DNA from: Escherichia coli
Lineage (GTDB): Bacteria > Pseudomonadota > Gammaproteobacteria > Enterobacterales > Enterobacteriaceae
Direction: 5' to 3' (one strand)
DNA: 64,000 nucleotides
NCBI RefSeq assembly: GCF_046105845.1
Contig: NZ_CP151004.1
Part shown: positions 27,001 to 30,000 of the stretch, piece by piece
Layout of the letters: each line of letters starts with the position of its first letter
Position numbering within the stretch: the stretch's first letter is position 1
Program-made: the position numbers

Positions 27001-30000
27001 CATCAACATTGAAGAGCTGGACGAACAGGCTGCGGGTCTGAACATCGTGACCGAAACGACCGATCGCGAACTGACCACCGTGATGTCTAACAGCTTCGGC
27101 TTCGGCGGCACCAACGCCACGCTGGTAATGCGTAAGCTGAAAGATTAATTCGCAGTAAGTCGGAGTAGGTCGGATAAAACGCGCCAGCGTCGCATCCGAC
27201 GTTACGCGCTAATGCGGCCTCCGGCACTAACACAAAAGGGAACCCGATGGTTCCCTTTTTCACATCATTGACAATCGCCGCCTGTTCCAGGCAAACTTCC
27301 CGCTTTGTCGATTTCCTTCTGAAAAGACGTACGCGTTAATTCCTGCCAACGCACCGTAACCCTGAAACCAGAGAGATGAGACGGGGATACTCCTCGCCTT
27401 GCGCTGCATTCTGGAGTAATGCATGACTGCTGTAAGCCAAACCGAAACACGATCTTCTGCCAATTTTTCGCTCTTCCGCATCGCTTTTGCGGTTTTTCTC
27501 ACCTACATGACCGTAGGGTTGCCGTTGCCGGTTATCCCGCTGTTTGTTCATCATGAACTGGGCTATGGCAACACCATGGTCGGGATTGCCGTCGGCATTC
27601 AGTTTCTGGCTACGGTGCTGACGCGTGGCTATGCCGGGCGATTGGCCGATCAATATGGCGCAAAACGTTCGGCGCTTCAGGGGATGTTAGCTTGTGGTCT
27701 GGCGGGGGGCGCGTTGCTGCTGGCGGCGATTTTGCCCGTCGCTGCACCGTTCAAATTTGCCCTGTTGGTCGTCGGGCGTTTGATTCTTGGCTTTGGTGAA
27801 AGCCAGTTACTGACAGGCGCTCTGACCTGGGGATTAGGCATCGTTGGGCCAAAACATTCCGGCAAAGTGATGTCATGGAACGGAATGGCGATTTACGGTG
27901 CCCTCGCTGTTGGTGCGCCGCTTGGCCTGTTGATTCATAGCCATTACGGTTTTGCCGCACTGGCGCTCACCACAATGGCATTACCCTTACTGGCGTGGGC
28001 CTGTAACGGCACAGTGCGCAAAGTACCGGCCCTGGCGGGAGAACGTCCATCGCTGTGGAGTGTTGTCGGGCTTATCTGGAAACCTGGGTTAGGTCTGGCA
28101 CTACAAGGCGTTGGTTTTGCGGTTATCGGGACTTTCGTTTCGCTCTACTTTGCCAGCAAAGGATGGGCGATGGCGGGCTTTACTCTTACCGCGTTTGGCG
28201 GCGCATTTGTCGTGATGCGTGTCATGTTTGGCTGGATGCCGGACCGTTTTGGCGGCGTGAAAGTGGCGATTGTCTCTCTGCTTGTAGAAACGGTGGGCTT
28301 GTTGCTGCTCTGGCAAGCCCCAGGTGCGTGGGTCGCATTAGCGGGCGCGGCGTTAACCGGAGCCGGATGTTCGCTTATCTTTCCTGCGCTGGGCGTGGAG
28401 GTGGTTAAACGCGTCCCCTCACAAGTTCGCGGCACCGCACTGGGCGGTTACGCCGCGTTTCAGGATATCGCCCTCGGCGTCTCCGGGCCGCTTGCGGGAA
28501 TGCTGGCGACCACGTTTGGTTACTCTTCGGTATTTCTTGCCGGGGCGATCTCTGCGGTGCTGGGAATTATTGTCACGATACTGTCGTTTCGTCGGGGTTA
28601 ACGAACCAGCCAGACCAGCATCAGGATAATCGCGACTAACAGTATCCACAGCGCGGGACGCGTTGCCATATTTTGCAACGTGTCCATCATCGGTGGAAAA
28701 GGATTAAGCAGCGGTTGTATATCTCGCGGATCAATCCCTTTAACCCGCCGTTGATAAAGCTGATTAAGAATATCCTCAGCCTGGGCAGAAGAAAGCGATG
28801 ATTGCGCAGAAAGGCCATATTTTTGCTGGATATATGCCGATAACGCCGCCAGTTCACTGGCATCTAAAGGTTGTTTCAGCGCCATCTGTAGTGATTCCAG
28901 CGTCGGCGTATTTTGCTGGCTTAGCGTCTGACGCGCCTGTAGCCAGGTCACCAGATGGTTAAACAGTTTCGCTGGAATTAACTCACCATCTTTCACCCCG
29001 GAAAGTTCCAGCATCGATTGCCAGATCTGCTTGCTGGGTTCTCCCGTTGCCGCCGCAAGTTTGGTCACCAGCTGTTTGAGCGCATTGTGCTCCGCCGGTA
29101 ATAACGGACGGTCGGTCGCCTCGCGCTGCTGCGGTTGCGGAATAACCATCTTCCCTTCCTGCAACAGGGTTAGAATGGTTTTTAATTGCTCCGGTGAGAG
29201 CTGATTCAGCGGCGTCTGACCAAAGTTATGACGGATATAATCCGTGACCGCCTGACGATTATTCCCCAGACGTAAATACTCCCCTAATTGCGCTAAAAGC
29301 TGGCGGGCAGAATGGCTTTTTTGCGCGGCCAGCAGACGTTGCGCCAGATTGTGCTCAGCGGCAGGGAAGTGACGCGAAAGCAGCGGTGAATCTCCCGACA
29401 GACCAATATCGTGCCTGATACCCGCCCACAGTTCTGCTCTTTGCTGTTGCGTCAGTGAGGTCACTTTCGTCATTAAGCTTTCCAGCGAAGTACGTTGCTG
29501 ACTGGATAAAGGCTGATTGCCCGCGCCAGACGGCAGGTTATCTCCCTGACCTGGTGGTTGCCCAGGAGGAGGGCCGGAAATAGGTTGTATCATTACGTAT
29601 CCTTATACCTGAAATCTTCGCAAGTATGCCTGGCCGCGAGATTATGGCACACTTGTCCGGTTAACTCTCGTCTCATACAGGTAACACAAACGTGAAAATC
29701 CTTGTTGATGAAAATATGCCTTATGCCCGCGACTTATTTAGCCGTTTGGGTGAGGTGACCGCGGTTCCCGGGCGTCCAATTCCCGTGGCTCAACTGGCAG
29801 ACGCGGATGCGATGATGGTGCGTTCGGTCACGAAAGTGAATGAATCTTTGCTGGCAGGAAAACCCATTAAATTTGTTGGCACTGCCACCGCGGGGACCGA
29901 CCATGTCGATGAAGCGTGGTTAAAGCAGGCGGGAATTGGTTTTTCCGCGGCACCAGGCTGTAATGCGATTGCGGTGGTGGAATATGTTTTCTCCTCACTG

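Follow-up and report, generated by a model that had tools for sequence, protein, structure and literature searches.

Where do the transcripts of two convergent genes end if no DNA lies between the genes? This question is raised by the junction of yfcJ and flk in the 64-kb stretch of Escherichia coli DNA analysed here (the window). The first-pass annotation had placed both stop codons within one tetranucleotide and had concluded that there is no room for a terminator between the genes and that transcription from each of them enters the other. The overlap is borne out by the sequence, the six-frame ORF list and the RefSeq annotation, and the two conclusions drawn from it hold as well. The tetranucleotide at 28598-28601 reads TTAA. 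The coding sequences overlap by exactly 4 nt, and the central TA is common to both stops. The last sense codon of yfcJ (GGT, Gly) has position 1 of the tetramer as its third base; that of flk (CGT, Arg) ends in the base complementary to position 4. The locus is thus a 4-nt YTAR tail-to-tail pair: two real genes on opposite strands that share the tetramer. Since intergenic DNA is absent, no terminator can sit between the genes, and each polymerase must transcribe its own stop codon when it is already inside the neighbour. Very probably, two real but unrelated genes simply overlap here tail to tail by 4 nt, an arrangement that persists by constraint on the C-termini, with the transcripts ending inside the neighbouring gene. 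The features of the junction are listed in Table 1.

Table 1. Features at and around the yfcJ-flk junction (positions in the window)
Feature	Position	Strand	Description	Basis
yfcJ coding sequence	27423..28601	+	MFS transporter, 392 aa; stop TAA at 28599-28601	six-frame ORF list
Candidate Rho loading region	28051..28597	-	C-rich, G-poor RNA past the flk stop, antisense to the 3' half of yfcJ	C/G ratio
TTAA with both stop codons	28598..28601	.	tail-to-tail overlap	sequence
flk coding sequence	28598..29593	-	flagella biosynthesis regulator Flk, 331 aa; stop TAA is the reverse complement of 28598-28600	
Hydrophobic C-terminal membrane anchor of Flk	28604..28654	-	ALWILLVAIILMLVWLV, residues 314-330	translation; anchor described in PMC13344023
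11-bp hairpin	28656..28685	+	GGACGCGTTGC / CATATTTT / GCAACGTGTCC; 55-84 nt past the yfcJ stop, inside flk codons 303-313	

An overlap of this kind might be an artefact of annotation, one of the proteins ending further upstream or one of the reading frames being no gene. This was checked because the ORF list is mechanical, and no support for it was found. The 2.4-kb segment 27300-29700 matches 5,424 of the 5,426 complete E. coli genomes with identity of 95-99.1%, and the junction itself is carried by 5,420 E. coli genomes. The same 4-nt overlap is present in the RefSeq annotation of E. coli NRZ14408 and three further strains, and in that of K-12 MG1655 (flk 2437950..2438945, yfcJ 2438942..2440120). 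The RefSeq product names are MFS or arabinose transporter for yfcJ and flagella biosynthesis regulator for flk; Flk is a flagellar checkpoint protein, and YfcJ is a transporter. The YfcJ ORF matches the Pfam family MFS_1 (E = 1.5e-35). No Pfam family scored above threshold in Flk, and published genetics of this protein exists in Salmonella (PMC13344023). In tblastn searches YfcJ produced full-length matches in 80 loci, with alignments running to residues 391-392 of 392 across genera; Flk alignments, again across genera, run to residue 330-331 of 331 in most loci. Both protein ends are conserved to the last one or two residues, and this includes the species in which a spacer separates the genes. 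The artefact is contradicted by the Salmonella genetics of Flk (PMC13344023) and by RefSeq in every genome inspected. We reject it and give it next to no chance of being right, as the stops follow from the reading frames, and these frames are confirmed by alignments with up to 80 loci that run to the ends of the proteins and, for yfcJ, by Pfam. Mis-assigned stop positions, the concern attached to the original claim, can be set aside on the same evidence: reading frames, homology to the last residues and RefSeq all agree.

The overlap is not a statistical surprise and belongs to a commonplace class. Lillo and Krakauer (2007) counted 58 convergent overlaps in E. coli, and overlaps of length 4 (CTAA, TTAA, CTAG, TTAG) form a jump in the length distribution (PMC2174442). 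One of the seven convergent pairs in the K-12 region equivalent to the window overlaps, the gaps being 58, 32, 47, -4, 120, 70 and 181 nt.

To describe the junction in related genomes, 80 Enterobacteriaceae loci found with YfcJ were considered, one genome per species, and both stops were located in each. The overlap of 4 nt was observed in 27 loci: in all Escherichia and Salmonella, most Citrobacter, Intestinirhabdus, Pluralibacter and a few other isolates. A spacer of 4-123 nt lies between the genes in 31 loci (Enterobacter, Lelliottia, Leclercia, Klebsiella, Buttiauxella, Cedecea and others), and 12 loci contain an insert of 0.7-2.4 kb (Phytobacter, Kosakonia, a Pseudocitrobacter MAG, C. amalonaticus S646, B. 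brennerae and others). In 10 loci, mainly of Kluyvera, flk was not found in the downstream DNA available; three of these (L045, L053, L068) have less than 1.5 kb of downstream sequence.

The 27 gap-less loci contain all four YTAR variants and no other tetramer (TTAA in 14 loci, TTAG in six, CTAA in five, CTAG in two), and the TA core is invariant. E. coli itself is polymorphic, with TTAA in K-12 and in the window and CTAA in G3X16-2 and AH25. By the logic of the sequence, the variable positions are the two at which a transition leaves the stops intact without changing the amino acid encoded by the opposite gene; T or C at position 1 and A or G at position 4 are the only choices that preserve both stops. 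The last transmembrane helix of YfcJ is encoded right up to the junction, on the opposite side from the Flk anchor, and the antisense of the anchor codons makes up the first ~55 nt of the 3' untranslated RNA of yfcJ. The overlap probably persists because the length of each protein is constrained at its C-terminus, where YfcJ has its last transmembrane helix and Flk its membrane anchor.

Each spacer of at least 26 nt contains a GC-rich palindrome, that of K. indica alone being weak (-4.3 kcal/mol). Over the 31 loci with spacers, a strong GC palindrome, either REP-like or a simple hairpin, is present in nearly all. REP/BIME-like spacers with folding energies of -25 to -58 kcal/mol were found in Enterobacter, Lelliottia V86_10, L. 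nimipressuralis and Leclercia 29361, and hairpins of 10-14 bp in Klebsiella, Buttiauxella, Leclercia UBA7405 and isolate RIT714. The REP of Enterobacter cloacae measures 40 nt and the Buttiauxella hairpin 31 nt. The inserts are unrelated between genera, and the flanking protein ends remain in register. In the neighbour-joining tree of FabB and YfcJ, the -4 state occurs on at least three branches. It is plausible that a gap-less ancestor received insertions independently; on a tree of two proteins the change may also have run the other way, by precise deletion. A more far-reaching scenario, which we consider improbable, makes the gap-less junction ancestral in the core Enterobacteriaceae and, at the same time, an evolutionary trap. 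The only way out of it would be an insertion restoring the two stops, as supplied independently in several genera by REP elements, by other palindromes or by gene cassettes. For as long as the junction lasts, it would subject flk and yfcJ to obligate antisense coupling, an effect that some lineages (E. coli proper, the C. freundii group and Salmonella) may have partly mitigated with different hairpins in the 3' coding end of flk.

The terminator of a gene in a convergent overlap must sit within coding sequence, and a rho-independent terminator was reported for 23 of the 116 E. coli genes of convergent overlaps (PMC2174442). One possibility is that yfcJ has a functional terminator or a stabiliser of its 3' end in the hairpin at 28656-28685, relocated into the coding sequence of flk. 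We consider this unlikely, but there are several observations in its favour besides the precedent of embedded terminators. The hairpin begins 55 nt past the yfcJ stop, and its fold is stronger on the yfcJ-sense strand (-19.8 kcal/mol on the plus strand RNA) than on the flk-sense strand (-15.2 kcal/mol on the minus strand). Only 16 sites in the 64 kb are as stable, and 11 of them are intergenic, of the terminator or REP type. Five E. coli strains carry the hairpin unchanged. A different stem, also fairly strong, is present in Salmonella and the C. freundii complex at much the same distance past the yfcJ stop. When the 140 nt past this stop are ranked by structure, E. coli proper, Salmonella and most of the C. 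freundii group come within the top 3-13% of segments. However, an intrinsic terminator is a stem-loop with a U-tract, preceded by an A-tract if it acts in both directions, and the hairpin does not have this form: it is followed by ATCATCGG on the plus strand and by CGCGCTGT on the minus strand, with no U-tract in either case. The five intragenic sites among the 16 are in aroC, mepA, flk, truA and lrhA, so that four more equally stable hairpins lie inside genes of the window. In E. albertii, E. whittamii and Escherichia E69 the hairpin is degraded, although the same -4 junction is kept there. Over the 27 gap-less loci the median percentile of the yfcJ-side structure is just 0.24, many loci being ordinary (0.45-0.8), and on the flk side no enrichment of structure was observed in the 130-140 nt past the stop (median 0.42). 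Finally, the tables of Adams et al. (PMC7815308) report no Term-seq 3' end at the hairpin. A conserved embedded terminator is rejected, since in the folds of the 27 gap-less loci structure occurs past the yfcJ stop only, and there it is lineage-specific. We describe the E. coli hairpin instead as a lineage-specific candidate pause site or 3'-end-protecting stem for the yfcJ RNA; its unusual stability, in the top 4% of 140-nt segments, could mean that it is more than a by-product.

Other candidate terminators were sought in the same region. The consensus scan, which produced 9 matches compared to 4.6 +/- 2.3 in shuffled sequences, found no convincing intrinsic terminator near the junction; there is one weak match on the plus strand at 28649-28665, with the tail CCATATTTTG. 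On the minus strand no terminator-like hairpins occur within 1.2 kb of the junction, and the first ones, at 27354-27331 and 27201-27182, are beyond all of yfcJ. The Rfam scan of 27000-30000 at E<=1 found no family at the junction. The sole Rfam match in this segment is a sub-threshold one to naRNA4/REP at 27168-27219. A terminator-like hairpin at 27476-27502, in the 5' end of yfcJ, was considered and rejected: it is conserved because of the codons for FRIAFAVFL, and the alignment of 32 loci varies at synonymous sites only, without compensatory changes.

Rho-dependent termination inside the neighbouring gene is another candidate mechanism. Rut-like sites are untranslated RNA stretches of roughly 80 nt that are rich in C and poor in G. 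The C/G ratio was computed in 78-nt windows, and its 99th percentile for the entire 64 kb is 2.17. Past the flk stop the ratio starts at 1.2-1.5 (first ~100 nt) and climbs to 2.2 at +325..+403 and +468..+546. Past the yfcJ stop a value of 1.3 over ~90 nt is followed by values of at most 1 up to about +325. This composition fits the action of Rho after ribosome release, more readily for read-through from flk, with the proviso that the C/G ratio alone does not define a rut site. The table of Adams et al. (2021) obtained with and without bicyclomycin (BCM) contains no region in flk or antisense to it, and none antisense to yfcJ (PMC7815308). The absence of such regions may reflect low expression, or Rho may not be the main route. 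The only yfcJ entry in these tables is 5'-proximal, and there is no entry for the junction and none naming flk (PMC7815308). The yfcJ entry is a Rho termination region at K-12 position 2440043, with Rho score 5.8 and p = 4e-12 (PMC7815308, supplementary file 2). This corresponds to position ~27500 of the window, 77 nt into the ORF, near codon 26. The reads upstream and downstream of it numbered 236 and 15 without BCM, and 266 and 98 with BCM (PMC7815308). Given this steep Rho-dependent drop near the 5' end of yfcJ, few polymerases should arrive at the junction from the yfcJ side in LB. Judging by these published data, the body of yfcJ is weakly transcribed in LB.

Strand-specific RNA-seq across the junction, which had been proposed as a check of the overlap, is in effect published. 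According to the ExcludonFinder study, flk-yfcJ transcripts overlap in MG1655, and the pair is among the 165 convergent excludons of this strain (PMC12288877). A convergent excludon is called there if the RNA-seq transcripts overlap in at least 50% of 58 MG1655 samples, given a coverage threshold (PMC12288877). The neighbouring pairs yfcH-rpnB and smrB-yfcO, also in the window, are on the same list (PMC12288877). One might suppose that selection has made a regulatory device of the gap-less junction and a true excludon of the pair. Expression of one gene would then repress the other, either because the two transcription events interfere or because RNase III cuts the RNA duplex, and a flagellar checkpoint factor would be coupled to a transporter. 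We think this has little chance of being correct. The presence of the pair in the published excludome agrees with it, as do the retention of the -4 geometry in Escherichia, Salmonella and Citrobacter and the higher synteny of excludon pairs, taken collectively, compared to other neighbouring pairs (PMC12288877). However, constraint on two stop codons is by itself sufficient to account for the retention. Relatives often split the pair by hairpins, REP elements or whole genes, or do not have the genes adjacent, and since many of them live with separated or non-adjacent genes, coupling of yfcJ and flk is dispensable. Moreover, literature searches turned up no functional link between YfcJ and Flk, and transcription of yfcJ is weak in LB. 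The p19/dsRNA statistics of the excludon study are aggregate ones (PMC12288877).

The reading as a plain overlap of two unrelated genes thus stays preferred, and the question of transcript ends may be answered as follows. As the genes leave no DNA between them, each mRNA would have a 3' untranslated part that is antisense to the 3' coding end of the partner, and the transcripts would end inside the neighbour without a shared intergenic terminator. One route would be Rho, acting once the ribosome is gone; the composition favours this for flk transcripts. Another, limited to E. coli proper, may be a pause or the trimming of the 3' end of the yfcJ RNA at the 28656-28685 hairpin. Head-on encounters of polymerases could contribute too, probably little at low expression levels; the collision model is best suited to highly expressed pairs (bioRxiv 10.1101/2022.10.23.513370). 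Since the tables of Adams et al. (PMC7815308) contain no 3' end at the junction, these routes are drawn from composition and folding. The expected outcome is an overlapping transcript pair, the one catalogued as a convergent excludon, and its regulatory effect is probably small under standard conditions.

By itself the overlap matters little: it is annotated in every E. coli genome inspected and represents textbook-level architecture. The overlap is annotated, its class is described and the overlap of the transcripts is catalogued, so all this is already known. The description of the junction across genera is a small addition. Escherichia, Salmonella and Citrobacter join the two genes directly, and Enterobacter, Klebsiella and Buttiauxella have unrelated palindromes between them; the ends of both proteins are identical in the two groups. 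This makes the pair a convenient test case for the benefit that an intergenic hairpin or REP element brings to convergent genes.

Several known systems are comparable. The overlapping bidirectional terminators of Ju et al. (2019), as described in bioRxiv 10.1101/2022.10.23.513370, likewise serve convergent genes, and the E. coli stem-loop near the junction, which has no features of an intrinsic terminator, could similarly position pauses or collisions. However, the elements described there lie between genes and are best for highly expressed pairs, whereas here the hairpin is inside flk and lineage-specific, and yfcJ is weakly expressed. In Enterobacter, Lelliottia, Leclercia, Klebsiella, Buttiauxella and others, REP/BIME elements and other GC-rich palindromes occupy this very junction, in spacers of 26-123 nt and with energies of -17 to -58 kcal/mol. 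Neither a spacer nor such an element is present at the junction in the window or in the remaining gap-less lineages. Among the convergent excludons flk-yfcJ is itself a listed member, defined by overlapping RNA-seq coverage. Excludon pairs have a mean intergenic distance of 95 nt (PMC12288877), whereas in flk-yfcJ the coding sequences themselves overlap, and the name excludon implies mutually exclusive expression and RNase III processing, whereas this pair is classed by overlap of coverage alone. The closest likeness is to the 4-nt convergent overlaps (PMC2174442), a class abundant among convergent overlaps. The geometry is identical, two stops on opposite strands sharing TA, with no structural differences, and what is added here is the picture of one such pair across genera.

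A terminator-like hairpin lies near the 5' end of yfcJ. A Rho termination region has been published at position 2440043 of the K-12 genome (PMC7815308, supplementary file 2); this position corresponds to about 27500 in the window, and the region coincides with the hairpin. In LB, transcription entering yfcJ appears to end mostly at this hairpin or Rho region. An alignment of 32 yfcJ loci contains only synonymous variation within the hairpin, and no compensatory changes were observed there in these loci.

Candidate regulatory features in and around yfcJ and flk
Feature	Window position	Strand	Context
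Terminator-like hairpin, CCGCA-TCGCTTT-TGCGG followed by TTTTTCTC	27476-27502	+	yfcJ codons 18-27
Weak sigma-70-like match, TTGCCA, 16 nt, CATCAT (9/12)	28663-28690	+	overlaps the hairpin inside flk
Sub-threshold naRNA4 match (Rfam, 35.1 bits; gathering score 59.5)	27168-27219	-	fabB-yfcJ intergenic region
Terminator-like match	27201-27182	-	fabB-yfcJ intergenic region

The sigma-70-like match is probably due to chance, as it was the sole match of its scan, whereas shuffled sequences yielded 2.0 +/- 1.2.

Comparison with the Enterobacteriaceae yfcJ loci, one genome per species (L003-L082), demonstrated that Flk diverges much faster than YfcJ, the product of the overlapping neighbour gene. Among Escherichia species the protein identity is 85-89% for Flk and 97-98% for YfcJ; across genera the respective values are 50-64% and 78-89%. 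The two genes are separated by inserts of 0.7-2.4 kb in Phytobacter, Kosakonia, a Pseudocitrobacter MAG, C. amalonaticus S646, Buttiauxella brennerae, and others (loci L048, L049, L054, L057, L058, L061, L065, L071, L074, L078, L080, L082). On the other side of yfcJ, no full-length FabB match within 3 kb upstream passed the filter in two loci of Salmonella (L009, L017) and five of Citrobacter (L016, L018, L030, L054, L056). In contrast, such a match is present upstream of yfcJ in Escherichia and most other genera. The adjacency of fabB and yfcJ may be interrupted in these Salmonella and Citrobacter loci.

An enterobacterial fabB-yfcJ-flk locus was also found in a record named 'Chryseobacterium sp. 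18061', and it clusters with 'Citrobacter sp. 18056' (loci L037, CACSKA010000009.1, and L024, CACSJR010000003.1). The assembly behind this record has probably been mislabelled or is mixed.

The region 27300-29700 was compared with 5,426 complete E. coli genomes, and its top match is only 99.1% identical (strain NRZ14408); nearly all remaining genomes fall at 95-99%, with about 98% in the sampled rows. The top match among species representatives is 'Escherichia sp. MOD1-EC7003'. The window may derive from a sparsely sampled Escherichia lineage.

Together, the naRNA4 match and the terminator-like match between fabB and yfcJ resemble a REP element lying downstream of fabB. For any read-through from flk, antisense to yfcJ, that crossed the whole of yfcJ, this element would be among the first strong hairpins encountered.
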